From Nitrospirota bacterium (GTDB lineage: Bacteria; Nitrospirota; Thermodesulfovibrionia; Thermodesulfovibrionales; JdFR-86): a DNA stretch of 64,000 bases. The stretch is taken from NCBI GenBank assembly GCA_963721805.1, contig CAVRJY010000002.1, forward strand, positions 5,067 through 69,066. Reading direction: 5' to 3'. Shown piece after piece: positions 7,173 to 61,743 of the stretch (its first letter is position 1; each line of letters begins with the position of its first letter). Below the pieces are notes generated by a model, which was not told the DNA's origin, searched no databases, and saw only the letters and a program-made list of their open reading frames with translations. The translations under genes were made by a program, and so were the position numbers.

Positions 7173-8142
7173 ATGCCATCCTCACCCAAGAAGAAACCTA
7201 AGAAGTATATCCCGCTCCAATGGGTCGTTGAATCCATCATGGATGAGCCAAGCTATATCCAGACGGTCGATGTTCGGATGCCAGGCCTGTTATCTCCATG
7301 GGCGATTAATGCTGCTGCTTACCTCTGGTGAAGAACCTTGGAATGGCTTATTGATTGCGACCGATCATGAGTCCCATGCCAGCATCAAGAAAGACTTCAT
7401 TACCGTTGTCCAGCACACCGTCCTGAAGAAATGGTTATATCTGCCGGAAGCGACTGAGGACTTTGAAACTGTGGCTTCGGAAATCGTTGAAACGATCAGG
7501 ATGAATGACCAAAGGTTCGGGGTGGAGCCGAAGGTAAAGAAGAAACGGAGCGAAGCCATGACTGAACCTCTCATCCAATATCGTAAAGCTACCTCTGCTG
7601 ACTTCGAGGGTATTCTCCGCCTCCAGCACCAAAATCTTATAACTTCACTCCAAGAGGAAGATTTATCCCAGGGGTTTTTATCTATGAAGTTCACGAGGGA
7701 GCAACTGCATACGGTTAGCAGTGAGCTTGGTATTTTTATTGCCCTTCATGACAAGGAAGTCATTGGATACCTGATGGCTGAATCAATTGAATTTGCGATT
7801 GGGTCACCCTTGATAGCTCATCTGCTCAAACGACTGAATAAAATCTTATCTGACGATGTTCCATGTTGTATGTTTGTTTATGGCCCTGTCTGTATCGACA
7901 AGCAATACCGGGGAACAGGAGTACTGGATGGAATGTTCAACTTAATGCTCCAGACATTGAAGGGGCAATATGAGGTAGGCATAGCATTTGTATCAGCACT
8001 GAATGCTCGGTCGTTCAAGGCTCATCATGATAAACTCGGGATGAAATTGGTTGATGAGTTTGAGTTCAATGGGCAACAGTTTAGGACCTTGATGTTTCGG
8101 CTAGATGAAATCGCAGGTGAGGGAGTTTCAGACGGACTTTGA
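7173..8142 (+). pseudogene. TfoX-N-like domain fused to a GNAT acetyltransferase; likely frameshift near 7265
   Basis: The ATG at 7173 gives MPSSPKKKPKKYIPLQWVVESIMDEPSYIQT. The next frame continues RSMFGCQACYLHGRLMLLLTSGEEPWNGLLIATDHESH. The C-terminus has the GNAT motif QYRGTGVLDGMF. Confidence 0.5.
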
Positions 8143-8910: not shown

Positions 8911-9510
8911 TTAATCTCCTAACATTAATTTGAGCCGTTTTTTGGGATTGTCGAATCTCACGTTTTTTGCATCGAAATATTCGGGTTTGAAATCACCGTC
9001 AGCCCATTCAATATATTCCTGATAGTGTTCATTCTCAGGATCCATTATTGCTTCAATGAATTCTTCGTATCCCCAAATTCCGCCACAATCTTCAGGAGGA
9101 CATGCTCTCTCACCTCCGATACAGATAGGATATTTAACCTTAGGTTCCCTTGGCATAATCTTTTCCAGAACTATCGAGTGATTCCAGTTGTCGCCAAAGT
9201 CGTAAATATAATTTGCCCGTTTATGCTTATCGTTGAAGTATTCAACTATTTTATGCTCCCAGCCGGGTAGAACTTCTCTATCATCCCATTCCTCAGCAGG
9301 TATCCCGATCTCCTCTTTCTTTCGTGATTTTGGATTTATAATCTCGAAATTATGAAGATGAGAATCCGTCCATCCCATGCTATTTTGTATCGCTACGTGC
9401 AGGTCCCAGAACGTATAATCTTCAGGAACGATTATTCGACGCCAGATAGGGGGTTTGCTTCCAGTGAGGGTTATCTTGAACTGAAACACATTTTCATATT
9501 TCTTGGGCAT
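8911..9510 (-). CDS. Plasmid pRiA4b ORF-3-like family protein
   Basis: FQFKITLTGSKPPIWRRIIVPEDYTFWDLHVAIQNSMGWTDSHLHNFEI is the family signature. I prefer the MPKKYENV start at 9510 because an AGGAGG lies 8 nt upstream. Confidence 0.7.
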   Translation of the reverse strand: MPKKYENVFQFKITLTGSKPPIWRRIIVPEDYTFWDLHVAIQNSMGWTDSHLHNFEIINPKSRKKEEIGIPAEEWDDREVLPGWEHKIVEYFNDKHKRANYIYDFGDNWNHSIVLEKIMPREPKVKYPICIGGERACPPEDCGGIWGYEEFIEAIMDPENEHYQEYIEWADGDFKPEYFDAKNVRFDNPKKRLKLMLGD

Positions 9511-9578
9511 CCCGGCACCCCTCCTGATTTTGTCTGAATATAGCATATGATCTTATGGATGCTCAAGATATTTTCTAT

Positions 9579-14900: not shown

Positions 14901-14925
14901 ACGGCAGTAAATCACTTTTTTCCAT
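11908..14925 (-). CDS. Replication protein: archaeo-eukaryotic PrimPol domain + PriCT-like + DUF927/SF3-helicase-like ATPase (1005 aa, intact)
   Basis: FIAADFDDH (DxD) and SGKGYHVYIFF (primase-polymerase motifs); CAFLKHAYENQASLSEPLWYAMVSNIA (PriCT-like); Walker A CNTTSTGKTTT. Confidence 0.75.
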   Translation of the reverse strand: MEKSDLLPLVKEVFKGRTDVIAQRFGKPYYPLCANIWKKDVCPMSMKSGSCSACKVTAYIPFSDKHLEDHIAGKKIHGVYPLLKDNTCHFIAADFDDHEKEDYPVNPLLDVEKYYYAAYEQDLDCYVLRSKSGKGYHVYIFFKDPVPAMKARTVVMALLKEAQVIGDDVINSSFDKFFPTQDKHSDPDSIGNLIALPFQGIAMQGDHTVILDPDSGFKTAYADQVEILSTIKYATEADLDRVINEWGLSANEEKPVTSPIVVRTETIKSFRTDNVTIDELMKCAFLKHAYENQASLSEPLWYAMVSNIACLSPNGEELCHEFSKGHPNYNKAETDRKIRHSLQDTKPHTCKHIKEKGFKCLESCKVKSPAGLFHRIDRTLGIGQAVQNIVPKAPVDASAVIPAGWSISGKGVISKVLWDKKEEQWYEAEILPIPVFLTERYTDVNSGMESIKLCWIRDGKPSDQILEKHKIADTKKIVELSGHGLPINSINAKSVVEYLAAYDNVNYKVIPEAKVSSFLGWQGDSDGFLCGDRYYSDSSSTGQVSFSADDQGNDQIAKGFKTKGDFNQWLKAVKLASDYPVAVSSIYFSLLPPLLKILEVQNFIVDYCNTTSTGKTTTLALGASTWGNPDNRSSSSLVRSWETTRVNVERTASLLNDLPMYMDDTKLAGTGNARDAGNTLLSRVIYLICSGVGKGRGSIKGLGNRGSWRTVLLTNGESPIVNVTQDGGQRGRVLSLWGSPFSATNNITATKVNQIKQLLMQNYGHVGYRWIEYIMANKQNWSKWVDLYRQEQNIFSARAGDDPVAIRLSEYITLLSMAISLIHEAIPELRFIDKDRLVDVIWDKSINNEKRDMTVKALEALYSWAVSNQTTFWGKHAASSYGNNSPVVPHSGWSGKWDEGYIAFTKSVFMRILKDDGFDGESMIRTFEDRGWLVKNKKGNGKSVKIMSESIYCYAIKLSAITEVLLYEKERVETPSRYNVHVDLSRINPTDDGEKRIESLGDIEF

Positions 14926-15406: not shown

Positions 15407-15943
15407 TTATTCGGCTATCCGATTTTCGGGGGCCACCTTTTTAAGATAGTAATAGGTCATTATTTTATTAATATCCGGCAGACAGCGAGATTTAAAACCA
15501 TTCTTCTCATAAAATCTCATGGCTAAGTTATCTTCATGAACCGTTGTCTGGAGGACAATTTTATCAATGCCCAATTCCCTGCATTTTTGCTCCATTTTAT
15601 CGAGTAAGTTCTGCCCTATTCCCATTGATCTGTATTGTTCTTCTACATATAAATGTCTAATATGACAAAAAGAATATTGGGTTTTGATCCCAGCCACCAG
15701 AACTCCGATTATATGCGCATTATGCAAAGATAGGATCGCAATTCCTTCATCATACTCTTTCGTCAAAATAAGCTTTTCTCGATCTTTTGTTAACGGAATA
15801 AAGTTCTTATCATATTTTATGACATGATTGTTCAATTTATCTATAAATGGATAAATAGCATCCATGTATTCAACAGGGTTTACAATCAAATAACTCACTG
15901 GTTGCGAAATCAATTGCTTCTGATGCTTCTCTGATGGTTTCAT
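15407..15943 (-). CDS. GNAT family N-acetyltransferase
   Basis: LYVEEQYRSMGIGQNLLDKMEQKCRELG..AMRFYEKNGF. I prefer the start at MKPSEKH (15943), which has a GGAGA RBS. Confidence 0.75.
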   Translation of the reverse strand: MKPSEKHQKQLISQPVSYLIVNPVEYMDAIYPFIDKLNNHVIKYDKNFIPLTKDREKLILTKEYDEGIAILSLHNAHIIGVLVAGIKTQYSFCHIRHLYVEEQYRSMGIGQNLLDKMEQKCRELGIDKIVLQTTVHEDNLAMRFYEKNGFKSRCLPDINKIMTYYYLKKVAPENRIAE

Positions 15944-16053
15944 CTGATCTTCTCCATTAATGCTGTTGGAAATCCACTCAACTATCACATGGCACGGAGA
16001 TAGGGCGGATGGCGAAGGAGGGAGCCCACCACCATCCACCCCCAGGAAGAAGA

Positions 16054-18479: not shown

Positions 18480-19817
18480 ATGCGAGCAGTGAGATTAGAG
18501 AATTCATTAGTAGTGCCAGTATCTGAAGCCTTGACAGTATCCCAACCAGAGAGGGACAATACAAATATATCGGTCTGGGGGTTTTCATTGATAAACATAA
18601 GAGCAAAGGGCAAGTGTCCTATCTGTAATAAGGCGTTCAAGGCGGACAAGAAATTTGGCTTTTTCTGTCCAGAGCATATGACTACGCCACAACGCTTCCA
18701 GATTGATTTCAGATATAAGAGTGAAAGGATACGAAGAGAAACCACGTTCGATGGGCGTCCCTTAAAATCTTTTGCTGAAGCATATGCATTGCTAAAGCAA
18801 GCTGAGAATGAAATCGCAGCACATAGGTTTGATCCTTCAAGGTGGTCCAGTAAGGAACGTTTTGAGTTTCGATTTGACAACCTTATTATGCGCTGGTATC
18901 AGGAGAAGGAAATCCTTATGAAGCAAGGGAAACTTGCTCCATCATATGTCCCAAAATTGATGACTTACATAAAACATTATTTCATGCCCGAGTTTGCATT
19001 GAAAGATGCTCGTGAAATAACCTCGGTAGATATCAAGGGATTTTACCTTACCCTTCCTGCAAAGGGATTGAAGGGGATACTTTCATTGAAATACCAAAAG
19101 AATGTTATGAATGCCCTTGAGGGTTTCTTTAACTGGCTACATGATCTTGATGTTATTGTTCAAATGCCTAAGTTCCAAAGGATTGAAGTGCCAGAACACG
19201 AGCCTATATTGATATCATCTCAGGAGCAAGCAATGATCATGGCCTATATACCTGCGGAGCATAAACCGATCTTTGCATTCCTATTTAATCAGGGGTGCAG
19301 ACCATCTGAAGTTAGAGCATTAAAGTGGATTGACATTGATCTCGTTAATGATCTGGTTACAATCAGAAGAACGTTCTCAGCTCATACATTGGTAAACCAC
19401 ACAAAAACCAAGAAGATTCGCCCAAATTATCTGTTCCCTGAAACGAAGGCACATCTCCCTGTACTTCCCGGACCAATTGAGTGGTGCAAAGACAGGTTTG
19501 TTTTTACGCACGGTAAAACCATGATAAGACCATATTCTGATAATCTAATCCATAAGATATATAACACAGCACTAGACGCACTTGAGCAAGCAACTGGAAT
19601 CAAAATAGACTCGCCACTTTATGAGGCAACGAAGTATAGTTTTGGGACGAACATGGTTAACGATTTTGATGTCCCAACTGATGTGGTTCAGGTGCATTAT
19701 GGACATACGTCTAAGGCTATGACACAGCGGTATGCGAAGCTAAATGCAGCTGCTGCACTGAAGAAGGCGGTCACCAAACGGTCACCAACCCCTCTGGACA
19801 CCGCTGCAAACGACTGA
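18480..19817 (+). CDS. Tyrosine recombinase / phage-type integrase with N-terminal Cys-rich segment
   Basis: C-terminal catalytic region ..GCRPSEVRALKW.. and VVQVHYGHTSKAMTQRYAKL (H-x-x-R..Y). CPICNKAF..FFCPEH lies near the N-terminus. The exact start is uncertain. Confidence 0.85.
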   Translation: MRAVRLENSLVVPVSEALTVSQPERDNTNISVWGFSLINIRAKGKCPICNKAFKADKKFGFFCPEHMTTPQRFQIDFRYKSERIRRETTFDGRPLKSFAEAYALLKQAENEIAAHRFDPSRWSSKERFEFRFDNLIMRWYQEKEILMKQGKLAPSYVPKLMTYIKHYFMPEFALKDAREITSVDIKGFYLTLPAKGLKGILSLKYQKNVMNALEGFFNWLHDLDVIVQMPKFQRIEVPEHEPILISSQEQAMIMAYIPAEHKPIFAFLFNQGCRPSEVRALKWIDIDLVNDLVTIRRTFSAHTLVNHTKTKKIRPNYLFPETKAHLPVLPGPIEWCKDRFVFTHGKTMIRPYSDNLIHKIYNTALDALEQATGIKIDSPLYEATKYSFGTNMVNDFDVPTDVVQVHYGHTSKAMTQRYAKLNAAAALKKAVTKRSPTPLDTAAND

Positions 19818-29457: not shown

Positions 29458-30726
29458 TCAAACGCTCCACTTACAAATTTTATCCTCTACTATTTTCTTC
29501 TTGGTCGCATATCGTTCTCTAGATACGCGCACAATCTTTTCAGCGTTCATTTCGGTGCCTGATAGGTCTTCAGGCGGCAAGGTGCAGGCAGAAAACGCAT
29601 CCCTTGCAACACCATCAATCATGAGGCGCAGGTAAATATGATATTGGGGTAGGTTGCAGAAATGATCGGCCTCGAATGTGTGTCCTAACTCTTCCTCCAA
29701 GATGGCAGCGTCTCTTGCTCCGACACGGAATGATATGATCGTCCCGCAATTTCCGAATATTGCGTTTCGTACCTTCTCGTCGATCTGTTCGATGTACTGA
29801 TTTGCTAGAATCAAATTCAGACGGTACTTTCTTGCCTCAGATAGGATGTTAGCAAATGACTCTGTCGCAAAGTTTTGGAATTCATCGACGTACAGATAGA
29901 AATCTCTTCTGTCCTTTTCAGTCGTATCCACCCTGGTCATTGCTGCAAGCTGTATCTTTGTAACCAGAAGCGCTCCGAGAAGTGCTGAATTATCCTCTCC
30001 GATTCTCCCCTTGCTTAAATTCACAATCAAGATTTTCTGGTTATCCATTACCTCGCGGACATCAAAAGAAGACTTGCTTTGACCGAGGATATTTCTCATG
30101 ATTGAACTTGAAAGGAATTGCCCGACCTTGTTTTGGATCGGTGCGATTGCCTCGCCTCTTAGCTTCTCTGGGTAGCCCGCGAACTCCTTTGTCCAGAAAT
30201 TGCGCACTACGGGGTCATCGATGTCCTTAGTCTGCTGCTTTCGGTATCCTTCATCGGCAAGAATTCTCAGAACCCCCAGAAGGGTTGAGTTGGGTATTCC
30301 AATAGGGTCAGAATCGCGTTTCTGAGTATGTGTTCAAGCCGTGGTCCCCAGCTATCGACCCAAATCTTCTTAAACACGCCGACTAAGCCCGAAGCGGTAA
30401 GATGCCGGGTAGCGGGGTTCTTGTCTATCATTACATTGAAGGCTATCGGGTATTCCTGATCTACTGGGTTGAAGTAGATGACATCGTTGATTCGATTTGA
30501 GGGAATGGCTTTCAGTAGCCGCTCGGCGGAATCACCGTGCGGGTCTATGAAGGCCACCCCGTTACCATTTCTGATATCTTGTATGGCAAGATGCTCCAGA
30601 AGGTTTGTTTTGCCCATTCCTGTTTTCCCGATAATGTACATGTGGCGTCTGCGATCATCTCTTTTGATACCAAATATTTCTCTCGTTTCGGAAATTTGTT
30701 TTTGCGAAAAATGTGATTTCTGACAT
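29458..30726 (-). pseudogene. Type IV coupling-protein-like / TraD-VirD4-type ATPase with about 2 frameshifts (~30290, ~30675)
   Basis: My cross-frame translation gives MSEITFFAKTNFRNE / EIFGIKRDDRRRHMYIIGKTGMGKTNLLEHL..FIDPHGD / LRILADEGYRK..FYLYVDEFQNFATESFANILSEARKYRLNLILANQY. Confidence 0.65.
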
Positions 30727-30780
30727 ATGTGTTTTTCTTACGGTTTAAAAAGCCCTTTGTTAGGGCCTTCATTGGCCTTG

Positions 30781-30815
30781 AAAAAAGCCCCCTCCTTCTT
30801 TGAAGACGAGGGGGC
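30781..30815 (-). terminator. Rho-independent terminator after the primase-like gene
   Basis: On the minus strand, GCCCCCTC-(13 nt)-GAGGGGGC is followed by TTTTTT. Confidence 0.6.
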
Positions 30816-30915
30816 AAGGGTAAAGAGCTATTTGTTTTGTGTGAAAGACTCGCTTCTCTCAGTATCCTGAAGTACATCTGAAGATTCTTCAGGGCCTGGA
30901 AAGGCGATTTCTTCC

Positions 30916-31628
30916 TCATGATCTCTTAAGGCGGATTGAGATCATCAGGAACTTGTTCATGAGCTTGAAGTGCTCCTGTGACAGATAGGGCAGTCCGAAA
31001 TTACAGACTGCCTGGTGCCCGGAGTCCCATAGCTTGAGGCAGTCGAACATGTCGGTCGTAAAGTAGACCTCCTTGTCGGGCTCAATGCGGTCGTAATACA
31101 GGAGATAGAGTTCGGGGTTAAAGGAATGGTGGAAAACGTGTTTTCCGTCCTTTATCCTTATCCCGTAGTATGCTATCTTCTTTTCGTTCGTCCGTGACGG
31201 TAAAGGAGATGGTGCCGGACAGCATGGTTTTCCCCTTGGGCTTTCCCAACGCCGAACATCTGCAGGTTTCCTGGGATATGCCCATGTTGCTTAAGGTTCT
31301 TGTCGAACTCCAGCTCGTAGGTCAGCGTGAGCTGCTTGGTTATCTTTCCACCGGTGAAGCATGCCTTTTCTTCGAGCAGTTTCTTGGCCGTGTCCCAGTC
31401 ACATTGCGAAATCGCCATGACCAGTGAGATGATGTGGCCGCTTCCTTTGCACTCAGGGCAGTACCAGAGGTTCTTTTTCTCTCCGTAGGCCTTTATGACG
31501 GCCTGTTTCCCGCACTTGTGGCATGGATACCTAATATAGGCTCCATGCTGGCTACCGTCAATCTGAAGAAGCTTGAGGGCCTTGCTCGTATCAACGGCGC
31601 AAAGCGTGTTAGCGTAATTCATGCACAA
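30916..31628 (-). pseudogene. CHC2 zinc-finger / Toprim-like primase-family protein with about 2 frameshifts at homopolymer runs (~31233, ~31180)
   Basis: YPCHKCGKQ..WYCPECKGSGHIISLV is a zinc finger. The tail reads, in other frames, KGKTMLSGTISFTVTDERKE and KIAYYGIRIKDGKHVFHHSFNPELYLLYYDRIEPDKEVYFTTDMFDCLKLW. Confidence 0.5.
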
Positions 31629-43045: not shown

Positions 43046-43068
43046 GAGATTTTTATCCGTATACACGC

Positions 43069-43107
43069 GGGGGTGGAGCGACGTGCTCCATCCCCGCTTA
43101 CTTTTTT
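43069..43107 (+). terminator. amtB terminator hairpin + T-run
   Basis: GGGGGTGGAGC-gacg-TGCTCCATCCCC, then ..CTTTTTT. The T-run merges into the first bases of the cassette arm. Confidence 0.55.
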
Positions 43108-43285
43108 CAAAGCGCGCCAAATCGCTTGATACGTCGTTGGGCTTCAAAGACTCGCCCTCTATGTACGCCCAAGTACACCATCGGGCGGTCTTCTCGCCCT
43201 GCCTTGTCTGAAGACGATTTGGGCGCGCTTTCGGGGGTTAATAGCTGCTACGCAGATGGACCCCCGCGCCCCCGTGGTCAACGGC
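43106..43285 (+). repeat. E1 left arm (hairpin 1 ~43109-43240, hairpin 2 ~43241-43270, terminal GGTCAACGGC 43276-43285)
   Basis: AAAGCGCGCCAAATCG pairs with CGATTTGGGCGCGCTTT. The apex is TGTAC-gcccaa-GTACA. Then comes CGGGGG-(23 nt)-CCCCCG. Confidence 0.7.
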
Positions 43286-43325
43286 ATGATTAGAGATATT
43301 GCATTTGCTTATGATAGGTGTGCTA

Positions 43326-44348
43326 TCAATTAGTTAGTTTTGAGCTAATCCCACTTAAATACTCAAGCGCGCTGTCTTCATCGTATATTACCTTTGTCCC
43401 ATATATTTCATGAAGGGCTAATGGTTTATCGCATATCCAATGTGCAAGGCTTGTTTCAGTTAGAAAGGCATCACAATAGGGTAAAGCCCATTGAGCATGA
43501 GAAATATCTGTCAGGTCGTTTGGCTTAAATCGCTGGCTTTTGTTATATCTAAATAACGCATGGATACTTGCGCCAATATGAATCCAAGGCAATTCCTTGT
43601 TAATCTTCTTTTGATCGAAGGCAGCGTAAATGAATAGTCGCGTTTGTTTAACTAACTCAGTTCGAACTGTTTCATCCCATGAAGGTGCATGGCCTGTATT
43701 CTTAGCATCAAGAAATTCCCAGACCCCATCGATGTCGTCTTTGAGAACATCCAAGCTTCCTGTAATCTCTAGCATGAATACTTCGTGAAATGTTTTCCAA
43801 TCTTGGTTTTCATCCTTTCCGTGATTCAGTCTTGCTATTAAATCTTCTGAATTTTTAGTGTGAAATTCTCCAGAAATATCCTCAGTTTTTCTCCATACAT
43901 ACTTTGCCGGGGTATATGGTTGATTGCCTTTAACTTTACTCTCACTATTACGAATAAACAAGATGAGTTCTTGTCCAGCAATACTCAGCGGTGATAAGAA
44001 AGTTATCTGTTGGCTTAGTTCGTCCATCACTTTTGCGATCTGAAGCTTTCCTTGCTCATTACCGTAATTAATTAAATCTTTATGCACATGGGGGCTAAGA
44101 GGACAAATTGCAATATTTGAGCGGACGAGCATTTTCAATATATTGAAGATGTCTACTTGCCTAGGAGATGCCTTGCCAATTGAAGCATTGCTCATATTAA
44201 TCCAATAGTTGGTATCAAGGTAAATCCTATGCTTCTTGAGCATTTCTTCTCCAAGTTCGATTTTTGATTGCTCATAAAGTTCTTCATTATGCATAGAAAC
44301 TATTTTAAACCTTTGTGCAGAATTATTCTCTTGAAACCATGCGGACAC
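43326..44348 (-). CDS. E1 cargo: hypothetical protein (322-340 aa), AT-rich
   Basis: Long ORF. The start is ambiguous (GTG at 44348 or ATG at 44294). YLDTNYWI near the N-terminus and PYCDAFLTETS near the C-terminus are loosely PIN-like. No firm family assignment. Confidence 0.55.
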   Translation of the reverse strand: MSAWFQENNSAQRFKIVSMHNEELYEQSKIELGEEMLKKHRIYLDTNYWINMSNASIGKASPRQVDIFNILKMLVRSNIAICPLSPHVHKDLINYGNEQGKLQIAKVMDELSQQITFLSPLSIAGQELILFIRNSESKVKGNQPYTPAKYVWRKTEDISGEFHTKNSEDLIARLNHGKDENQDWKTFHEVFMLEITGSLDVLKDDIDGVWEFLDAKNTGHAPSWDETVRTELVKQTRLFIYAAFDQKKINKELPWIHIGASIHALFRYNKSQRFKPNDLTDISHAQWALPYCDAFLTETSLAHWICDKPLALHEIYGTKVIYDEDSALEYLSGISSKLTN

Positions 44349-44440
44349 TCATGAGCAATAAAGCAATTCCATCTTGTGTCCGAAGCTGGCACACAATCAC
44401 AAGATACGCCCCCATACCACAACACCCCGGAACTGGTCAA

Positions 44441-44470
44441 TGGGAACTGGTTCCTAGGAACCAGTTCCCA
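44441..44470. promoter_or_regulatory. 30-bp perfect palindrome TGGGAACTGGTTCCTAGGAACCAGTTCCCA with flanking half-sites, upstream of the E1 cargo gene
   Basis: I verified that the reverse complement is identical. Extra half-sites GGAACTGGT (44429-44437) and GGAAGCGGTTCCC (44471-44483) flank it. It lies ~95-120 nt upstream of the cargo start on the minus strand. Confidence 0.55.
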
Positions 44471-44570
44471 GGAAGCGGTTCCCATGGACGCGTTCCGCCT
44501 TTTCGTTCTATCATCGCGCATGAAGTATATAGCAGATATATTAACGGGACGGAAAACCGGGCGGCCACAT

Positions 44571-44711
44571 GAAAAACGTTTCTGAACGCATGAACACAGG
44601 GGTAGCTAAAAAGCGATGAAATCCGCGAGGTTGAGATGCGTTTTGTTTTTTCATTTGAACGCCCTAAAAAAATACGCGCGGCCGCGCGCGATAACTATGT
44701 ATATAACTAAG
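44571..44711. other. Conserved internal module of the cassettes (E1 copy)
   Basis: Shares these blocks with 61359-61498: GAAAACGTTTCTGAACGCATGAACA, CGATGAAATCCGC, TTCATTTGAACGC, an A-run plus GC palindrome, and TATGTATATAACTAAG. Confidence 0.6.
44666..44690 (-). terminator. Minus-strand intrinsic terminator inside the E1 module
   Basis: The minus strand reads CGCGCGCGGCCGCGCG followed by TATTTTTTT. Confidence 0.55.
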
Positions 44712-44885
44712 CCGTTGACCTTGTGGGGCGCGGGGGGCGTCCTTCATCCGTGCCCCCCGAAAGCGCGCCCAAATCGTCTTCAGACAAGGCAGGGCGAGAA
44801 GACCGCCCGATGGTGTACTGTGACGTACATGGAGGGCGAGTCTTTGATGCCCAACGACGTATCAAGCGATTTGGCGCGCTTTGAA
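44711..44885 (-). repeat. E1 right arm (inverted copy of left arm)
   Basis: The reverse complement aligns with 43106-43285. The stems are conserved, but the apex loop (gtcaca versus gcccaa) and the hairpin-2 loop differ. Confidence 0.7.
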
Positions 44886-44898
44886 GAAGGATAGTTTG

Positions 44899-46248
44899 CT
44901 AAACCAAAAGGTAGTATCTCACCCAGACGTACAGGGTAGATACCCCGACCGTCAGTATCATGATCGGCATGCCTATGGACATGAAGCGCAGGAACGACAC
45001 CTTCCGCCCTGCGCGTTCCGCCATCTCCAGCACTATCACGTTTGCGGACGCGCCGATAGCCGTCCCGTTTCCGCCGAGGCAGGCCCCAAGCGCGAGCGAC
45101 CACCATACGGGCATCAGTTCGTGGTGCTGCAGGAGCTGGACCCCGCTCAAGTTCGGCCAGAGCTGCCTGCCTATGTCCACTATGAGCGGGTTCATCGTCG
45201 CCACATAAGGGATGTTGTCGATGAACGCCGAGGCGAAGGCCGAAAACCACATCACGACCATCGAGGTCGCGAGCATCCGGCCGTGCGTGATGTCCAGGAC
45301 CCTTATGGCGAGCCAGTTTATGAGCCCGACCTTCACGACCGCGCCTACGATGATGAAAAGCCCGATGAAGAAAAATATCGTCGGCCACTCGACCTCGGCG
45401 AATACCGCGTGCAGGTTCTCGGGCCGCGACAGGAGCAGGAGCGCCCCGGCCCCCGCAAGCGCAACGGTCGCGGGCTGCAGGTGCAGTGTCCCGTGCAGGA
45501 CGAAGCCGACCAGCACGACCGCGAGCACGCACAGGGACTTGGTGAGCATCACCGGATCGGTAATCGCCTCGCGCTCGTCCATCGCCATCACGCGCGCCTT
45601 GAGCGCGTCCGTGGCCCGCAGCTTCCGGCCCCAGATCAGCCTTATCGCGCCGAGATAGCTGATCATTACCAGCGCTATCGCGGGCGTGAGGTGAATGATG
45701 AAGTCCATGAAGTCCAGATGCGCCTTAGACGCGATCATTATGTTCGGCGGGTCGCCGATGAGCGTGGCGGTGCCGCCTATGTTCGAGGCCAGCGCGCACG
45801 AGATCAGAAACGGCACGGGGTCGAGCTCCAGCGCGTCGGCGATGAGCATGGTCACCGGCCCGATCAGGAGCACGGTGGTCACGTTGTCGAGGACGGCGCT
45901 CAGTATGGCGGTGACTATCGAGAACGCGGCCAGTATGCGGAATGGCTCGCCCCGGCCCCACTTCGCGCTCTTTATCGCGATGTACTCAAACAGCCCGGTC
46001 GGCCGCGTCAGGTTCACGATGATCATCATCGAGATCAGCAGGCATATGACGTTCCAGTCCACGCCGAGCTCCTCGGTGTGGAACGCGTCGTGCTGGTCGA
46101 GCACGCGCAGCACGAGCAGCACCGCCGCGCCGAGTATCGCGACCGTGGTCTTGTGGAGCTTCTCAGAGACGATCAGCGCATAGGCGAGCGCGAACACCCC
46201 GGCCGCGATCCAGAACTGCGCGCTGAACGCGGGATCGACCGGGATCAT
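44899..46248 (-). CDS. ArsB/NhaD-superfamily (CitMHS-like) anion/ion permease
   Basis: 449 aa polytopic protein. I recognise the family from the overall pattern (..FALAYALIVSEKLHKTTVAILGAAVLLV.. ..GGTATLIGDPPNIMI..). Confidence 0.7.
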   Translation of the reverse strand: MIPVDPAFSAQFWIAAGVFALAYALIVSEKLHKTTVAILGAAVLLVLRVLDQHDAFHTEELGVDWNVICLLISMMIIVNLTRPTGLFEYIAIKSAKWGRGEPFRILAAFSIVTAILSAVLDNVTTVLLIGPVTMLIADALELDPVPFLISCALASNIGGTATLIGDPPNIMIASKAHLDFMDFIIHLTPAIALVMISYLGAIRLIWGRKLRATDALKARVMAMDEREAITDPVMLTKSLCVLAVVLVGFVLHGTLHLQPATVALAGAGALLLLSRPENLHAVFAEVEWPTIFFFIGLFIIVGAVVKVGLINWLAIRVLDITHGRMLATSMVVMWFSAFASAFIDNIPYVATMNPLIVDIGRQLWPNLSGVQLLQHHELMPVWWSLALGACLGGNGTAIGASANVIVLEMAERAGRKVSFLRFMSIGMPIMILTVGVSTLYVWVRYYLLV

Positions 46249-46395: not shown

Positions 46396-46734
<339 letters not shown>

Positions 46735-46747
46735 TTATCCGGTCCTC

Positions 46748-48389
46748 CTATCTGTGTGTGTGGCGCGTCTGGAAGTCAGGGTATGCGGTGACGCCCACCT
46801 CGGCCTGGTCCAGACCTTCGATTTCGACCTCTTCAGGGACCCTGAGCTTGATGAACTTGTCGAGGACCTTGAAGAAGACGTATGAGATCGCAAATACGTA
46901 TACGAAGTTCGTCAGCGTGCCTATGCACTGGGCCGCGAACTGCGAGGCGTCACCATAGAACAGGCCCTTGACCGTGCCGGCCACGCCGTTGAAGCCGTCG
47001 CCGTAGGTGCCGTCCGCGAAGAGGCCCAGGGAGAGCACGCCCCATGCGCCGTTTACGCCGTGCACTGAAAACGCGCCTACCGGATCGTCGACTTTGAGCG
47101 TGCGCTCGACGAAGAACACCGAGATGATGACGAGTATGCCCGCTATCGCGCCGATCAGCACCGCCGAGGGCGCGGTGACGAAAGCGCACGGAGCGGTGAT
47201 CGCGACGAGCCCGGCCAGCATGCCGTTGCACATCATGCTGATGTCAGGCTTGCCGTAGCGAGCCCACATGAAGATCATCGAGGAGAACGCGCCGGCGGCC
47301 GAGGCGAGCATCGTGTTGGTCGCGATGACGCCGATGCGGAGGTCGCCGCCCGCGAGCGTCGAGCCCGCATTGAAACCGAACCAGCCGAAGGCCAGTATGA
47401 ACGTGCCGACGACGGCCATCGGGATGTGGTGGCCGGGGATCGCGAAGATCTTGCCGTCCTTATACTTGCCGATCCTGGGGCCGAGCACTATCGCGCCGGC
47501 GAGGGCCGCGACGCCGCCGGTCATGTGCACGACGGACGATCCGGCGAAGTCCACGTGGCCGTGGCCGAGGCCGAAGTTCGTGCCGAGCTGCGGAGAGGAA
47601 CCCGCCGCCCCATACCCAGTTGGCGAAGAGCGGGTAGATAACCGCTCCGACGAATATGCCGTATATGATGAAGCTCTTGAAGCTCCAGCGCTCGGCCATC
47701 GAGCCGGTCGGGATCGTCGCTGTCGTGTCCATGAAGACCATCTGGAACAGGAAGAGCGCGAAGACCGAGGCGTCATACGTCACGCCCGAGAGGAAAAATC
47801 CCCTCATCCCGAACAGGCCCATGTCGTGGCCGAACAGGTGAAGCGTGAACTCGTGGTTGAGTACGCCTGCGCCACCGAGCGAGGCCACGCCGCCCACGCC
47901 TCCCATCTGGAGCGCGAAGCCGCATATCCAGTAGCCGAGCATGCCCAAGCCGTACACCATGAAGTTCATGGCCATCGTGTGGCCCGCGTTCTTGGCCTGC
48001 GTGAAACCGGCCTCGACCATCGCGAAGCCTGCCTGCATGAACATGACCAGGAACCCGGCGACCAGCGTCCAGACCATGTTGATAGCTATCCTGTTGTGGC
48101 CGATGACGTCCGCGAGCTTCGTGGCCAGGGGCTCGGCCTTCGAGAGCGCCGCCATGTCCTCCTTGCTCGGGGCGCCGGAGGTCGCGCCTATCACGTCCGC
48201 GGCGCCGCCTGTGTTCGCGCCCGAGGGATCAGGCTTCGGCTCTTCAGCGGCAGCCGCAGGAGCCGCCGGAGCGGTCGTGGCCGTGGCGTTGACTGCCGCA
48301 GGCGCAACTGCGGCTTCGTCGGCATACGCCAGATATGCCGAGCCCGCTATCATTACAATCATCATCAGTGCCATCAACAACCGCTTCAT
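46748..48389 (-). pseudogene. Second ammonium transporter, split by one frameshift near 47600
   Basis: The N-terminal piece (47460..48389) ends ..PLFANWVWGGGFLS. The continuation QLGTNFGLGHGHVDFAGSSVVHMTGG.. is in the frame of 46748..47776. Confidence 0.75.
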
Positions 48390-51696: not shown

Positions 51697-51722
51697 AAAA
51701 CAGGGCGGCCCGTGAGGGCCGC
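51697..51722. repeat. Hairpin AAAACA-GGGCGGCCC-gtga-GGGCCGC (copy 1 of a duplicated terminator-like element)
   Basis: Similar to 52841-52876. It overlaps the stop codon of the 51722..52756 gene. Confidence 0.5.
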
Positions 51723-52756
51723 TATTGATGCTGAGCGCGCGAGATCATCTGCTTGATGGCCTTCTTTGCGTTAATTTCAAGTATTTCAATCTCAGGGTGC
51801 ATATTAGCGAAAACCCTGAAGACCTCGTCAGCAAAGGGCTGCCCGATAGTGTCTATACCCTCGAAATTCAATACGACCACCTTGAAACGTTCGAATCGCG
51901 CCAAAAGTCGTTTGGCCTGTGAGCGCGATATCAATTGCTCATCTCCGTATCTGGCAAGGCGCACAGGTACGACAGTCTTTGAGAAGGTGAACTCCTCGTC
52001 GCTCGTAAACTTATTGAAAACGCCCTGTGTGGTACGGGTCGTGCCGTTATTGAGCTCCATATAAACCCCTGTGCCCATTACATCATCATCGTGGTTCAGT
52101 GCCCAGTATTTGTCGCTGGCTGCTCGGTGAGAAAATGACATGTCGTGTGAGTAAATAACAAAATAGTCAAACATATTGGAGGTAAAAAAAATTCCTTCAC
52201 CGGAGTGTCTAGTCGGGTCGGTCGTAAGTTTTCCTTTAGAGAGTTCCAGAATCGCATGGTGTTCGTCTTCAAGGTTTAGTTTGCGGACGAGTTTCCTGAA
52301 TATGCCTTCTCCGTCATCCATGATATTAACCTTGGTGCTTGCAGTCGTCATCTTGATAGTTACTATGATAACTTTGCCGCCGGAATGATCGATAGCGTTA
52401 TTGAGCATCTCAGTGAACCCATACTGGAGAATATCCATGACGTTATTGGGAAGCCCCTGCTCATGAAGTTTTGGTGCTATATCATTTCTCCATACCACGT
52501 CCTCCTGAAGCTTTCCGTCTAGCTTGTAGGATGTTTTTAACTCAAAGATCGGTGCAGGCTTATATATGCGACTGCGTCTCTCGCCTTCGGCGATAAGCTT
52601 TTTATCGGCCACAAGCGATTGCAGGTGCTTGCCAACGGCCTGACGTGAGATGCCGAAATGCTCCGCTGAATATGAGGCGATGTCATTTTTGTGGGCGCTT
52701 ACGTGAGACAGGATAAACCGCCTGACATCCTCACTCTTTGTGCGCTTGACCGCCAT
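51722..52756 (-). CDS. wHTH + GHKL (HATPase_c-like) ATPase + C-terminal STAS-like (DUF4325-type) domain protein; low GC
   Basis: The N-terminal HTH is ISRQAVGKHLQSLV. EMLNNAIDHSGG and DDGEGIF are ATPase N- and G1-box-like motifs. The C-terminus VVVLNFEGIDTIGQPFADEVFRVF resembles DUF4325. Confidence 0.55.
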   Translation of the reverse strand: MAVKRTKSEDVRRFILSHVSAHKNDIASYSAEHFGISRQAVGKHLQSLVADKKLIAEGERRSRIYKPAPIFELKTSYKLDGKLQEDVVWRNDIAPKLHEQGLPNNVMDILQYGFTEMLNNAIDHSGGKVIIVTIKMTTASTKVNIMDDGEGIFRKLVRKLNLEDEHHAILELSKGKLTTDPTRHSGEGIFFTSNMFDYFVIYSHDMSFSHRAASDKYWALNHDDDVMGTGVYMELNNGTTRTTQGVFNKFTSDEEFTFSKTVVPVRLARYGDEQLISRSQAKRLLARFERFKVVVLNFEGIDTIGQPFADEVFRVFANMHPEIEILEINAKKAIKQMISRAQHQ

Positions 52757-57875: not shown

Positions 57876-58751
57876 TTGGGGATAAGGCAAGGGGAGGGCG
57901 CATTGACGCCAAATCTTACGATAGGCGAGGTCAAGATAACGTGGCTGCACGGCGGGGTATTCGAGCTCGACGGCGGGACGATGTTCGGCCCGGTGCCGCG
58001 CGTGCTCTGGGAAAAACGCTTCGCCTACCACGGGGACAACTACATAAGCCTGCTTAACCACCCGATGCTCGTGCGCGCCCCATGGGGTACAGCGATAATC
58101 GACACCGGCCTGGGCAACAAGCTCACCGAGAAGCAAAAAAAGATATTCCGCGTGACCGAGGACTGGCGGCTGCTGGAATCGCTCGCGGAGCAGGGCGTCA
58201 GCCGCGATCAGATAGACTTCGTGGTGCTCACCCACCTCGATTACGACCACGCCGGGGGCGTGGTGATGCATAACCAAGAAGGCGTGGCGGAGCTCACGTT
58301 CCCGCGCGCGCAGCACATTGTGCAGCGTGCGGAGTGGGAGGATGCGATATCGCCTAATAAGCGCGCCGCGCACTCCTACTGGAAGCGGAACTTTGATGGG
58401 CTGGTAGCGGGTGAGAACCTCTTGCTCGCTGAAGGCCCGCACGAGGTGATGGAGGGGTTGGCCGTGTTCCCGACCGGGGGCCACACGCGCGGGCATCAGG
58501 CCGTGGTCATATCCTCCGGCGGGCAGAAGGCGGTGCACCTGGCCGACCTGCTGCCCACGCACGCGCACTTTAACCCGCTCTGGGTTACGTCATACGACAA
58601 CTTCCCTCTCGATGCGGTCGAGCGCAAGGAGCAGTTCGAAAAACTCTTCGTCTCTCAGGGCGCGTGGTTTCTCTTCTACCACGACCCGTTCATGGCCGCG
58701 TGCCGCTTCGACCCCAGGGGCGAGGTCATCGAGAAACTTGACTGGCGCTGA
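57876..58751 (+). CDS. MBL-fold metallo-hydrolase
   Basis: [11 protein letters not shown] (HxHxDH-type motif variant) and ..GGHTRGH... Confidence 0.75.
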
Positions 58752-60226
58752 TGCCTAAGAAAGCCGTCATCGTCGGCGCGGGCCCGGCCGGGCTCACCGC
58801 CGCGTATGAACTGCTCACCAGGACCGATATCGTCCCGACGGTGCTTGAGGCCTCCGAAGACATCGGCGGCATCTCGAAGACCGTCCATTACAAGGGCAAC
58901 CGCATCGACATCGGAGGGCACCGCTTCTTCTCGAAGTCCGAGCGAGTCATGCGCTGGTGGGCCGACGTATTCCCGATAGAGGCCGCGCCGGAGCCGGACC
59001 CCAAGCACACCGACAAGGTCATGCTGCGGCGAGACCGCCTCTCGCGGATATTCTTCCTCGGGAAGTTCTTCCCGTACCCGATCCGGCTGACTCTGGACGT
59101 GATGCGCAAGCTGGGCGCGCTTCGTGCATTTAAGATATGCCTGAGCTACCTCATGGTCCGCCTCAGGCCGATCAGGCCCGAGCGGTCGCTCGAGGACTTC
59201 TTCATCAACCGCTTCGGACGCGAGCTGTACCTCACGTTTTTTAAGGGCTACACCGAGAAGGTCTGGGGCGCGCCGTGCGCCGAGATCTCGCCCGAGTGGG
59301 GCGCTCAGAGGATCAAGGGCCTCTCGGTAGGGCGGGCGGTCAGCCACGCGATAAGGCAGTCGCTTGGGGGTGGGCAGCCGGCCGTTGAGACGAGCCTGAT
59401 CGAGAATTTTTTGTACCCCAAGCTCGGGCCGGGCCAGCTCTGGGAGGAGGTCGCGGCGCGGGTGCAGCAGCGCGGGGGCAAGGTGATAACGGGCGCGGAG
59501 GTGGTGGGCGTCGAGACCTCGGGCAGGCGCGTGACTGCTGTCACGGCCAAAGACCGGCAGACGGGCGGGCTTCAGCGCCATGAGGCGGACTGGTTCTTCT
59601 CGACCATGCCGGTGCGCGAACTTGTCGCGGCGATGGGCGAGGCGGTGCCGCAAGATGTGAGGGACGCGGCTGCGGGCCTGCAATACCGCGATTTCATGAC
59701 CGTGGGGCTGCTGCTTAAAAAGCTCAAGACTCCGGTGCCGGACAACTGGATATACGTCCAGGAGCGCGGGGTCAGGATCGGGAGGCTACAGGTCTTCAAT
59801 AACTGGAGCCCGTGGCTCGTAGCCGACCCGGAAGGCACGGTATGGCTGGGGCTTGAGTACTTCTGCACCGAGGGGGACGGGATGTGGTCGATGCCTGACG
59901 ACGAGTTCGCGCGGTTCGCGATAGGCGAGCTTGCCTCGATCGGGCTGATCGATCCAGCCGACGTCCTCGACCATAAGGTGCTTCGCGTGCCCAAGGCATA
60001 TCCGGCATACATCGGCGGGTACGATAGATTCGGCGTGGTCAGGCGATACCTCGACGGACTCGAAAACCTCTTCCTGATCGGCCGAAACGGGATGCACCGG
60101 TATAACAATATGGACCACTCGATGCTGACCGCGATGGCCGCGGTCGAAAACATCATCGCTGGGCGCACTGACAAGACCAATATATGGGCGATCAACGCTG
60201 AGGACGACTATCACGAGGGTTCATGA
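58751..60226 (+). CDS. NAD(P)/FAD-dependent oxidoreductase (amine-oxidase / UDP-galactopyranose-mutase-like fold)
   Basis: [16 protein letters not shown] dinucleotide-binding motif; 491 aa. Its stop TGA (60224-60226) lies in the first bases of cassette E2. Confidence 0.75.
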
Positions 60227-60395
60227 AAGCGCTCCAAATCGCTTGATACTGCGTCACGCCTCGCAGCCCGATCCTCAACGTATGTCCATATACGCCTCCG
60301 GTCGGTCTGCTCGCCGCTCCTTGTCTGAAGACGATTTGGGCGCGCTTTCGGGGGAGAGAATAACGTAGCCCCCCGCGCCCCACGAGGTCAACGGC
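60224..60395 (+). repeat. E2 left arm
   Basis: Shares AAAGCGC(T)CCAAATCGCTTGATAC and CCTTGTCTGAAGACGATTTGGGCGCGCTTTCGGGGG..CCCCCGCGCCCC..GGTCAACGGC with the E1 arms. The apex is CGTAT-gtccat-ATACG. Confidence 0.65.
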
Positions 60396-60458
60396 TTATA
60401 TTAAGAGCATCATGACCGTTGCCCCTGCCGCACATGGAATGGAAGGGAATTCAGTCGA

Positions 60459-61019
60459 TTAATCCTCAGCTCTCCATGCGATAAGGTCTAAGTGTATTCG
60501 ATGATTAAAACTGTATTCATTTTTTGCCATATCTGTTGCAACTGACTGATAATTATCGTTTGTTACCTTATTTATTGCAGTTATCGTAGTCCATTTAGTG
60601 TTCTTATTATGGGAATCTAATTTTTTACCAACATAGCTATCTAAAGGGACTTCAAGGAACGGCATTAAATGGCTCAACTGATATTTTTCATATATGAATC
60701 GATTATAACAAGCGTTGCGCATAAATATATTTAAACATTTTCGCGCTATACCCCAAAGCGCAGTCTTTTCCTTAGAGTGATCTATGATTAAATATAATTT
60801 GTCAACCAAATTCTTTGTATGCTCGTCTATTATGTTTGAGTAATCCGCTTCATTCATAATCAACCTGAATTGATTGAAATCCATTCCGCCCAGATATTCT
60901 CTAACGCATTTACCAGTCCCCGTTGGATATCCCCTTACTGTACTAACCCCTATGGAAACGTTTGCGAGATGTTTCGTTAATGCCTTATAAAAATCAAATA
61001 CATTGGCCTTATCATTCAT
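60459..61019 (-). CDS. E2 cargo: hypothetical protein (186 aa), AT-rich
   Basis: A GGAGG RBS lies 8 nt before the ATG. I recognise no motif. Confidence 0.55.
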   Translation of the reverse strand: MNDKANVFDFYKALTKHLANVSIGVSTVRGYPTGTGKCVREYLGGMDFNQFRLIMNEADYSNIIDEHTKNLVDKLYLIIDHSKEKTALWGIARKCLNIFMRNACYNRFIYEKYQLSHLMPFLEVPLDSYVGKKLDSHNKNTKWTTITAINKVTNDNYQSVATDMAKNEYSFNHRIHLDLIAWRAED

Positions 61020-61358
61020 GTTTCATAGCCTCCACTCTGTGATTTAATATGAAACAATAAAACTGAGAGAGTTAAATGGCACCAGCCAGTTCTCATCCCG
61101 ATGTGCATCATGCTCCAAAGATACCACAACCGCTCGGAGTATACCAAACATTTTTCCGAGGGCTGCCGACGTTCATTAACCATAGTTAATCGAAAGTTAG
61201 TAGAAAACGCACGGGCATCAATTTTTCCTATCAACTTAGGTTTATATATAAACCGTAGGATATCGCTTTTTTCATTTCTTTGTGATTTAATACGGGATGA
61301 TGCTTAGATGGGTATTTTTGAGGTCGCGGAAAGCGAAGTTGGACGCCGATGGAGCGGT

Positions 61359-61498
61359 GGAAAACGTTTCTGAACGCATGAACATGGGAGTGGTCAAATT
61401 ATCGATGAAATCCGCTGGCTTGGACTGTTTTTTCTCTGTTCATTTGAACGCTCAAAAAAAATGCGCGTACGCGCGCGGTAAGTATGTATATAACTAAG
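61359..61498. other. Conserved internal module of the cassettes (E2 copy)
   Basis: Aligns block-wise with 44571-44711. It includes a minus-strand terminator (GC palindrome 61463-61477 plus T-run, 61454-61477). Confidence 0.6.
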
Positions 61499-61521
61499 GT
61501 GACGAGCGCAGGTCTAATTAA

Positions 61522-61696
61522 GCCGTTGACCACGAGGCGCGGAGGCAGCGGCTGGGCCGCGCACTTCGCAAAGCGCGATAAATCGCGTCAGGCTAGGAAC
61601 GGCGAGGAAAACGTCCGCAAGTGTACTGAGACGTACTCTGGAGGACGGATTTCCGAAGCCGTGACAACGTATCACGCGACTTTAGCGCGCTTTCAA
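61522..61696 (-). repeat. E2 right arm
   Basis: Read inward, it has AAAGCGCGCTAAAGTCGCG..CGCGATTTATCGCGCTTT, apex GTAC-gtctca-GTAC, GCGCGG..CCGCGC and GGTCAACGGC. Confidence 0.6.
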
Positions 61697-61743
61697 GAGG
61701 GCAAAGTTTGCAGCAGCTTTAGCCAAGAAGGTATAATGCGTTG

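Follow-up and report, generated by a model that had tools for sequence, protein, structure and literature searches.

What kind of unit has come to lie between the ammonium transporter gene amtB and a neighbouring permease gene in a Nitrospirota bacterium of the order Thermodesulfovibrionales? We addressed this question in a stretch of 64,000 nucleotides (positions 5,067 to 69,066 of contig CAVRJY010000002.1; hereafter the window), in which a segment that we call E1 is bounded by long inverted arms and encloses a single gene. In the best-supported reading, E1 belongs to a lineage-restricted, multi-copy family, present in this uncultivated bacterium and in related ones, whose hairpin ends resemble those of REPINs (repetitive extragenic palindromic doublets forming hairpins) and MITEs (miniature inverted-repeat transposable elements), and which carries an insulated platform on one side only. 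We assign a probability of roughly 60% to the view that E1 is a non-autonomous, cargo-carrying insertion cassette mobilised in trans, and that it acts as an exchangeable slot for single defence-type genes.

A repeat search of the window identified the arms of E1 as an inverted pair of 135 nt (43103-43237 and 44754-44888) with 96% complementarity; with indels allowed they reach to about 43285 and 44711, at 86.7% over 188 nt (E = 4e-58, blastn). Pairing of this extent is far beyond chance. The left arm abuts the intrinsic terminator of amtB, which is host sequence (43067-43107, plus strand, by terminator scan; GC stem at 43067-43097, then the T-run), and it starts within that T-run; the same succession of terminator and left arm is seen at amtB in a relative (locus L007, described below). 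The right arm ends 10 nt from the stop codon (44899-44901) of a CitMHS/ArsB-type permease gene (44899-46248, minus strand), which is the right-hand neighbour of E1 and is without a terminator of its own. The GC content of the E1 interior is 38-44%, against about 60% in the flanks. Within it are a single open reading frame (ORF), which encodes an orphan protein of 322 residues on the minus strand (43326-44294), and a perfect palindrome of 30 bp (44441-44470). E1 also has a counterpart about 15 kb away, as 44570-44899 matches 61358-61711, adjoining the right arm of a second element, E2. Every feature proposed in a first-pass annotation of the sequence is present. That annotation was silent on three others: each arm is itself a hairpin, the module shared by E1 and E2 lies on one side only of each element, and both cargo genes read away from it.

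The arm is an imperfect hairpin of about 125 nt with conserved terminal blocks (AAAGCGCGCCAAATCG). Hairpin 1 of the left arm (43103-43239) comprises a pyrimidine run, block AAAGCGCGCCAAATCG, a paired spacer and the inverted block CGATTTGGGCGCGCTTT; it scores 167 bits against a covariance model of the arm, with a fold z-score of about -5 on both strands. Hairpin 2 (43232-43266) has, in the consensus fold, a G5/C5 stem and a variable loop that is 95% identical to that of the orthologous arm at L007. An inner box, GGTCAACGGC..., follows at 43273-43295, as located by alignments and a motif map. In the right arm, the inner box GCCGTTGACC and a hairpin 2 with a G6/C6 stem (44711-44759; alignments, consensus fold and motif map) are followed by hairpin 1 and a purine-run flank, GAAGAAGG (44752-44891; inverted repeat, fold and covariance model). 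The general order is thus hairpin 1, a G5-6/C5-6 hairpin with a variable loop, and box CGCCCCAC(R)AGGTCAACGGCTTA. The inner box GGTCAACGGC is kept in six of seven aligned full arms, once with a single substitution; the exception is the left arm of a relative, in which it is truncated after GGT. Folding energies of hairpin 1 (AAAGCGCGCCAAATCG...CGATTTGGGCGCGCTTT) range from -52 to -66 kcal/mol on either strand, and eight strands were folded in all, each with a z-score of about -5 except the plus strand in the E2 left arm (-2.7). The terminal block (43108-43130 and 44862-44885) holds a mini-palindrome, AAGCG-N9-CGCTT, that is REP-unit-like, and the first seven bases of the arm, (G/C)AAAGCG, resemble the start (GTAAGCG) of IS66-family terminal repeats.

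Ten arm copies were aligned to the covariance model. Standard pairs make up 94.9% of all pair cells, compared with 31-45% when partners are slid; 10 pairs show compensatory double changes, and none of 500 shuffles reached the observed values. The core helix contains 8 G.U and 7 A.C pairs, a symmetric departure from Watson-Crick pairing, which fits a palindrome at the DNA level better than a strand-specific RNA. A strand-specific RNA role for the hairpin is unsupported on this count and also because folding energies are similar on the two strands. Coding potential was rejected for both arms and module, as stop positions differ from copy to copy and no open reading frame is kept across copies in either.

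E2 (60217-61711) shares its arms and internal module with E1. Its left arm (60217-60402), placed by alignment and the covariance model, is a divergent subtype, about 78% identical to the E1 arm, and its first bases give the TGA stop codon of the upstream oxidase gene (58751-60226). The cargo is an AT-rich orphan ORF of 186 codons (60459-61019, minus strand) in a segment that runs to about 61171; a single-sequence AlphaFold2 (AF2) model of the product was unusable (predicted local distance difference test, pLDDT, of 38). Beyond it, 61172-61711 comprises the E2 platform and the right arm. The platform is made up of a 'region X', which has palindromes TTAACCATAGTTAA and GGTTTATATATAAACC, followed by the module (61358-61500), where the minus-strand terminator lies; the right arm occupies 61510-61707, upstream of gmd (61741/61744-62871). 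The best named homologs of Gmd are about 70% identical to it and are scattered over several phyla, whereas two others, P0095 and P0096, reach 86-87%.

Similarity between the two elements continues for about 17 nt past the right arms (E1 44886-44903, E2 61697-61714), where the sequences read AAGAAGG-ATAGTTTGC and AAGAGGGCAAAGTTTGC, respectively. In E2 this flank runs into a promoter-like site, TTTGCA-N19-TATAAT, ahead of gmd; in E1 it extends as far as the permease stop codon on the opposite strand. Given this similarity, the element may extend slightly past the hairpin. Statistically the likeness is marginal, with p = 0.006 when E1 is compared with r8_R and above 0.02 when it is compared with E2, and since it covers only some 17 nt, the idea of an outward promoter shared by the E1 and E2 flanks was dropped. 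The flanks of the ends of E1, E2 and a solo arm, L012, continue the inverted symmetry, with a pyrimidine run facing a purine run.

About 300 bp of conserved non-coding DNA, the platform, separates cargo from right arm. In E1 it opens with an edge and palindrome array (44396-44500), and the junction with the cargo is sharp: three elements, each with its own cargo, become homologous within about 2 nt of CCCCCATACCACA. The E1-type array is made up of four tandem GGAAC-NN-GTTCC-type palindromes, the 30-bp perfect palindrome included. A variable linker (44501-44570; 52-81% identity between elements) leads to the conserved one-sided module (44571-44711, minus strand), which was delimited by an alignment of four to five elements and a terminator scan, and which contains the invariant blocks AAAACGTTTCTGAACGCATGAAC (44573-44595) and TTCATTTGAACGC (44650-44662) as well as an invariant GTATATAACTAAGCC. 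The minus strand also carries an intrinsic terminator (stem 44675-44690, U-run 44666-44674) that faces transcription entering from the right arm. A terminator with GC stem, variable loop and U-run is present in all five modules, the stem being conserved, and it would block read-through from the neighbouring host gene, which for E1 is the permease gene. Inward of the terminator on the minus strand are the invariant blocks GCGTTCAAATGAA and GTTCATGCGTTCAGAAACGTTTT, with three TGAAC(G/A)C motifs. We rejected RNA structure in the module, as these blocks are invariant and covariation in the alignment is zero; they therefore appear more like protein-recognition DNA than structural RNA. No conserved ORF was found in the module, nor is a short ORF that follows the terminator conserved. 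At the array edge, the minus strand carries a promoter-like sequence directed at the cargo, TTGACC-N18-TATGGG, with TG just before the second hexamer. E2-type elements have region X, with palindromes of its own, in place of the E1-type array.

Through shared protein clusters, the two sites were located in a sister contig (ENA ERZ25039558 contig_19384), whose AmtB and Gmd proteins fall in the same 90%-identity clusters as those of the window; its amtB|permease site is L007 and its oxidase|gmd site is L008. At L007, amtB with the left arm on one side, and array, module and right arm with the permease gene on the other, align at 76-96%, and the cargo between them, an ORF of 283 codons on the other strand, is unrelated to that of E1 (43296-44395, an AT-rich segment). 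At L008, region X, module and right arm are conserved with respect to E2, and the cargo is again unrelated, the interior holding relB, the first 10 or so codons of a toxin gene, and two other ORFs. In place of a left arm, L008 has two 25-nt 'stubs' (AAAGCGCGCGA...) in direct orientation. Within L008 7533-7930, the gene after relB (7612-7869) is this toxin gene, which is relE/yafQ-like and is truncated after about 10 codons by the stub AAAGCGCGCGACAATTCAGG, and a near-identical stub upstream of relB gives the oxidase gene its stop codon. We read L008 as two tandem cassettes divided by these direct repeats.

On the left, the cargo of E1 starts past the complete arm, that of L007 past ...GGT and that of a third site (L011) immediately past hairpin 1. 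The swap boundaries lie at GGT|CAAC in the E1/L007 comparison and just after AAAGCGC in that of E2 and L008, with no common motif. The left arms of E1 and L007 are orthologous right up to the cargo, hairpin-2 loop included, and the left crossover is therefore not ordinary homologous recombination inside the arm. Platform orientation is the same in the window, L007 and L011. From these alignments, exchange looks to be anchored at the platform edge and imprecise on the left side.

The framework is found at three or more unrelated intergenic sites. L011, between a P-type ATPase gene and scpB, has the E1-type array, module and right arm, with a TIR-domain gene (ThsB/ThcB4-like) as cargo. Its half-arms (4190-4257 and 4829-4898) start at the hairpin apex and flank platform and right arm as direct repeats of about 68 nt, and at L011 2748-3001 a diverged complete hairpin unit (2813-2936) sits inside the apical loop of another arm. 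Nested hairpin and half-arms together suggest that the hairpin apex is a preferred breakage or insertion point. L012 is a solo arm after a stub, with neither cargo nor platform, so that remnants comprise this solo arm, the stubs of L008 and L012, and the half-arms of L011. In all, about 14 full, half or nested arm copies were read as DNA in the window and four loci. Arms are conserved more highly than host genes: identity among the right-arm hairpins of E1, L007 and L011 is 96%, whereas for adjacent host genes it is 76-88%, and L011 is a different locus.

Because gene callers sometimes call spurious ORFs in the arms, a profile of the arm pseudo-peptide was run on protein collections. It yielded 14 matches and then, exhaustively, 18 genuine ones among 1.84 billion representatives, each with a different outer flank; two are elsewhere on the source contig and five on one contig of 1.55 Mb. 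Two ENA contigs reached in this way carry L011 and L012, and at least 15 further arm sites in related assemblies are seen as pseudo-ORFs. The platform of about 300 bp accompanies the right arm at three different loci and at the site of pseudo-ORF P0218. A third type of platform was also observed: pseudo-ORFs P0085, P0093 and P0214-P0217 share an upstream region of about 250 nt (...TSEQNRQKRARTRAECITIP...) that is unlike the E1 and E2 platforms yet is joined, in six copies, to the same arm.

Searches of the GTDB representative, JGI, IMG/VR, plasmid and phage collections revealed no copy of the family. The arm block AAAGCGCKCYAAAN{0,1}TCGCKTGATAC had no match in GTDB representative genomes or JGI metagenomes, and GATTTGGGCGCGCTTTCGG had none in IMG/VR (both by exact-block scan); a back-translated arm profile found nothing on viral contigs, and BLAST of platform plus right arm against plasmids and phages gave no match. 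The single match of a module 20-mer, in a Clostridiales contig, was set aside as chance, being a bare 21-mer with no flanking similarity. Rfam returned nothing at gathering threshold for the whole window, and for E1 at E up to 5 it returned only noise. With the covariance model, no other arm copies were detected in the window, at its other AT-rich islands or near unrelated cargo homologs. The first-pass annotation had held that a match of the arms to the ends of a catalogued insertion-sequence or transposon family would make E1 an ordinary non-autonomous derivative, and that an identical arrangement in related genomes with no further copies would mean no mobility signal; a search of Rfam, plasmids and phages gave no match to a catalogued element, and the arrangement in the related genome is not identical.

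The E1 ORF (43326-44294 from ATG, 322 residues; to 44348 from GTG, 340 residues; minus strand) has 73 homologs, every one annotated as 'hypothetical'. In other bacteria, their neighbours include MmeI/Eco57I-type restriction-modification genes, ParE, DUF559 and transposases. The homologs are often preceded by a small ORF (51-82 residues) that overlaps their start (L003-L006; for example, at about 4846-5001 in L003), in what may be a toxin-antitoxin-like pairing. No such partner accompanies the E1 gene, and about 35 internal residues of the homologs are missing from its product; 5' truncation was considered and rejected, as the N-terminus is complete and the deletion is internal. An AF2 model built with 38 sequences has a pLDDT of 91. 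Compared with solved and viral structures it gave no significant match, the recurring weak ones being to PIN-like nucleases (HARP, VapC, PIN_53EXO). Four acidic residues are invariant in the family, D27 (in YLDTNYW), D91, E109 and D263, which fits a PIN-type acidic site, and we tentatively regard the E1 cargo as a PIN-like nuclease of an orphan family. Elsewhere in the family the cargo is a TIR protein, RelB accompanied by a truncated toxin, a protein resembling GT51 transglycosylases, or an orphan; the set appears to carry a conflict or defence flavour. Cargo reads away from the module in four of five elements.

How such cassettes might move can be sketched as follows. The framework would have reached its intergenic sites, at the 3' ends of genes, by means of an enzyme supplied in trans, possibly a transposase or a hairpin-recognising protein of HUH/RAYT type encoded elsewhere. 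Once placed, it would be a portable slot in which recombination substitutes one passenger for another, the exchange being anchored at the sharp platform edge and landing imprecisely on the other side, in the inner left arm. The platform would contribute an inward terminator, the invariant TGAAC-type boxes and a palindromic, operator-like array that abuts the cargo at a fixed point.

Several observations weigh against this reading. There is no direct repeat or target-site duplication at the ends of E1, E2 or L012, and neither 8-bp (IS66-like) nor TA duplications were found at element ends. No empty site was found either. In consequence, the exact termini and transposition itself are unproven. 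Pfam searches revealed no transposase, integrase or recombinase inside or next to any element, be it E1, E2 or those of relatives, which agrees with the first-pass annotation of E1 on enzymes as it does on target-site duplication (ORFs, Pfam and comparison of ends); no RAYT or insertion sequence (IS) transposase is present in the sequence read, which amounts to 64 kb from the source and about 41 kb from the relative, and the arms could be tied to no transposase or recombinase. On the left, the cargo junction is ragged, differing in every element, and the swap boundaries share no motif. The L007 cargo lies on the opposite strand, which weakens the idea that the platform drives cargo expression, and the promoter-like motif was not called by a consensus promoter scan. 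Such indications as there are of a defence role for the E1 cargo come from the neighbourhoods of distant homologs and weak fold hints. Lastly, the two sides of a palindromic arm can co-evolve through intra-strand templated correction, without selection on structure, so the covariation is no proof of structural selection.

The absence of an enzyme and of target-site duplications is also what would be expected if there were no composite unit at all, the arms being ordinary self-proliferating repeats of the REPIN/ERIC (enterobacterial repetitive intergenic consensus) kind, with acquired genes gathering at fragile or recombinogenic palindromes or other elements using the arms as targets, as IS1397 uses the loops of REP sequences and bacterial interspersed mosaic elements (BIMEs). 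A cargo-less solo arm, a hairpin nested in the apex of another, half-arms that start at the apex, ragged inner junctions and the symmetric G.U and A.C mismatches (8 and 7), which fit a DNA-level palindrome, all agree with this. We nevertheless think it unlikely, as the same platform of about 300 bp recurs with the right arm at three loci and at the P0218 site, and the third platform type does so in six copies; the repeated unit is therefore asymmetric and much larger than a bare hairpin. Moreover, cargo always lies exactly between the inverted arm pair and the platform, and the other AT-rich islands of the window are without arms. A different departure from a mobile cassette would be an invertible switch, in which the arms allow the 1.5-kb interior to flip by RecA or an invertase and so toggle cargo or neighbouring genes. 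Long, near-identical inverted repeats suffice for inversion, and the L007 cargo is oppositely oriented; yet at L007 the platform keeps its orientation and the cargo alone differs, in sequence as well as strand, which indicates replacement rather than inversion. As there is also no adjacent invertase, and as a switch leaves the same architecture with unrelated cargo at several loci unexplained, we consider it very improbable. A fold-back chimera could in principle arise in a contig from a metagenome-assembled genome (MAG), which is the source here, and one Logan contig does break at an arm and at the palindrome; however, the arms are diverged rather than identical copies, and the architecture recurs in at least four independent assemblies from different assemblers (NCBI MAG, ENA contig_*, k141_* and Logan), by which an assembly artefact is effectively refuted.

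Two related views accept the cassette and give it a machinery of its own. In one, the arms are the sites of a dedicated hairpin-binding enzyme, RAYT/HUH-like or a new recombinase, and form with the insulated platform an integrase-independent, integron-like system, in which repeats of REPIN type have become cassette ends and single anti-phage or conflict genes are shuttled among fixed slots of the chromosome. This would match the 'REPIN that incorporates beneficial DNA' anticipated earlier (PMC3116915), and we regard it as speculative and rather unlikely. In the other, which we hold to be equally doubtful, the locus is a hairpin-site recombination platform analogous to an integron, in which a dedicated recombinase reads the folded arms or the platform edge and inserts or excises single-gene cassettes beside a resident promoter/operator platform. 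The single-gene, AT-rich cargo of defence or toxin-antitoxin type, the long imperfect hairpins of attC-like size with conserved bulges, the sharp platform/cargo junction in three elements, the promoter-like motif directed at the cargo with an insulating terminator upstream, and the tandem cassettes of L008 split by direct 25-nt stubs are all as such a system would have them. Against this, the base of the hairpin is AAAGCGC/GCGCTTT and not the attC core RYYYAAC/GTTRRRY, the arms are inverted and not direct, and a change of cargo leaves the orthologous left arm in place, which means that the cassette brings no site of its own. No integrase is adjacent either, the only one in the window (18480-19817) being in a separate island 24 kb away. 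The first-pass annotation had offered a recombination-site-bounded cassette as one option; no enzyme stands behind it, and the ragged left junction argues against precise two-site recombination. On balance, the trans-mobilised insertion cassette is the reading that we retain.

If that reading is true, a portable, hairpin-ended and transcriptionally insulated slot swaps single defence-type genes at ordinary intergenic sites, and does so with neither an integron integrase nor a resident transposase. It would add to the routes by which immune repertoires turn over, namely defence islands, integron cassettes, and prophage and satellite hot spots, and REPIN/MITE-like repeats, usually seen as cargo-less selfish or regulatory DNA, would become the ends of cassettes. 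For MAGs of this group, the arm model also has a practical use, as a guide to accessory and defence genes that have escaped annotation.

The rest of the window contains other features of note. Positions 1-20300 form an AT-rich (33-45% GC) integrated island without hairpin arms, which is probably a separate integrative or defence island. It encodes the tyrosine integrase mentioned above, an AEP-TOTE/DUF927/HTH_56 primase-helicase (11908-14925), a DndB-like protein (2763-3347), an AAA_23/SMC-like ATPase (4707-6527), a PRiA4_ORF3 protein (8911-9546) and a GNAT protein (15407-16039). A lower-GC patch at 29458-31628 holds a fragment of a TraG coupling protein of type IV secretion systems (29458-30207) and a CHC2 zinc-finger protein (31173-31628), both on the minus strand, and looks like what is left of a conjugative element. 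Downstream of a second glnK (46396-46734), a second amtB (46748-48389, minus strand) is split into two overlapping ORFs; it is also in pieces in the relative (L007 15385-17056), and represents either a frameshift or pseudogene, or a long-read assembly error. An AT-rich patch at 51.7-52.8 kb was considered as a third element and rejected: it is a conserved gene of 344 codons and foreign-looking composition (51722-52756, minus strand) that lies between two ordinary GC-hairpin terminators and is not bounded by arms, its ortholog in L007 (19052-20086) being annotated as HATPase_c_2/DUF4325-like. The two AAAGCG cores at this patch lie inside genes.

It remains to place E1 among known systems. Integron cassettes, like E1, have AT-rich, single-ORF cargo enriched in toxin-antitoxin and defence functions, and attC sites, like the arms, are imperfect hairpins (about 60-130 nt) that work with a resident platform whose insertion point lies by a promoter. 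E1 differs in that attC cores are absent, the stem base being AAAGCGCGCC / GGGCGCGCTTT in every arm, the arms are inverted, IntI is lacking, with no integrase adjacent, and the hairpin does not travel with the cargo. Modules with pdif sites have 28-bp dif-like sites (11-6-11) inverted at both ends; by inspection only, the sole TGTATA-centred stretch of E1 (44690-44712) has flanking half-sites that are direct, not inverted, and occurs on one side only. Invertible segments have an adjacent invertase gene and are observed in both orientations; E1 has no recombinase next to it, and the platform orientation is constant, as described above. In MITE-flanked composites, such as integron mobilisation units and the MITE pairs at class 1 integrons of Acinetobacter, two miniature repeats bracket a cargo in the manner of a composite transposon; the repeats are direct or inverted, with target duplications and known IS relatives, and the cargo consists of plasmid resistance integrons. 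E1, by comparison, is chromosomal, carries a single defence-type gene and has a resident platform.

Further parallels are offered by intergenic repeats and minimal mobile elements. ERIC repeats are intergenic palindromes of about 100-150 bp over their whole length. Correia repeats (Correia repeat enclosed elements, CREE) are imperfect palindromes of about 100-150 bp, intergenic and at gene ends (PMC2649163). The E1 arm is like both in size and whole-length palindromy, with no sequence relationship to either. The minimal mobile elements of Neisseria hold different genes between conserved flanks according to strain, exchanged via recombination (PMC1797815). Different genes at the same site are likewise found in E1 and L007 and in E2 and L008; the conserved flanks in Neisseria are host genes, whereas here they are a portable repeat and a platform present at several loci. 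In REPINs, highly conserved terminal blocks in inverted orientation enclose a spacer of lower conservation, which compensatory changes maintain as a hairpin; these elements are extragenic and multi-copy, with singlet remnants and clusters (PMC3116915). The E1 arm shares the non-coding character, the conserved inverted terminal blocks, the hairpin spacer and the dispersed, multi-copy, extragenic distribution with remnants. It is longer (about 125-180 nt) and has an extra hairpin, an inner box and a platform, and REPINs are not known to carry genes, whereas E1 does.

As a whole, E1 agrees, apart from the target-site duplication, with the descriptive definition of the mobile insertion cassette (MIC), a gene bracketed by inverted repeats without a transposase (PMC3913671). 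Like MIC231 of Bacillus cereus, mic-qnrD and mic-qnrS2, it has a passenger gene with its own expression signals between inverted repeats and no transposase inside, mobilisation in trans being presumed. MIC ends, however, are short (about 20-50 bp) copies of the terminal repeats of a known IS, usually with a target duplication, whereas the ends of E1 are structured units of about 180 bp, each a hairpin, for which no partner IS or duplication was found; E1 also has a conserved one-sided internal platform and exchanges its cargo at a fixed site. The first-pass annotation had seen in E1 a layout that matches nothing known and perhaps an undescribed type of mobile cassette. The first of these does not hold, as the arms have a REPIN/ERIC/MITE-type organisation and the cassette fits the MIC definition (PMC3913671), and with it goes the suggestion of a wholly new kind; what stands is a repeated, transposase-less cassette with a mobility signal, found at three or more loci, with swapped cargo and with solo and nested arms.

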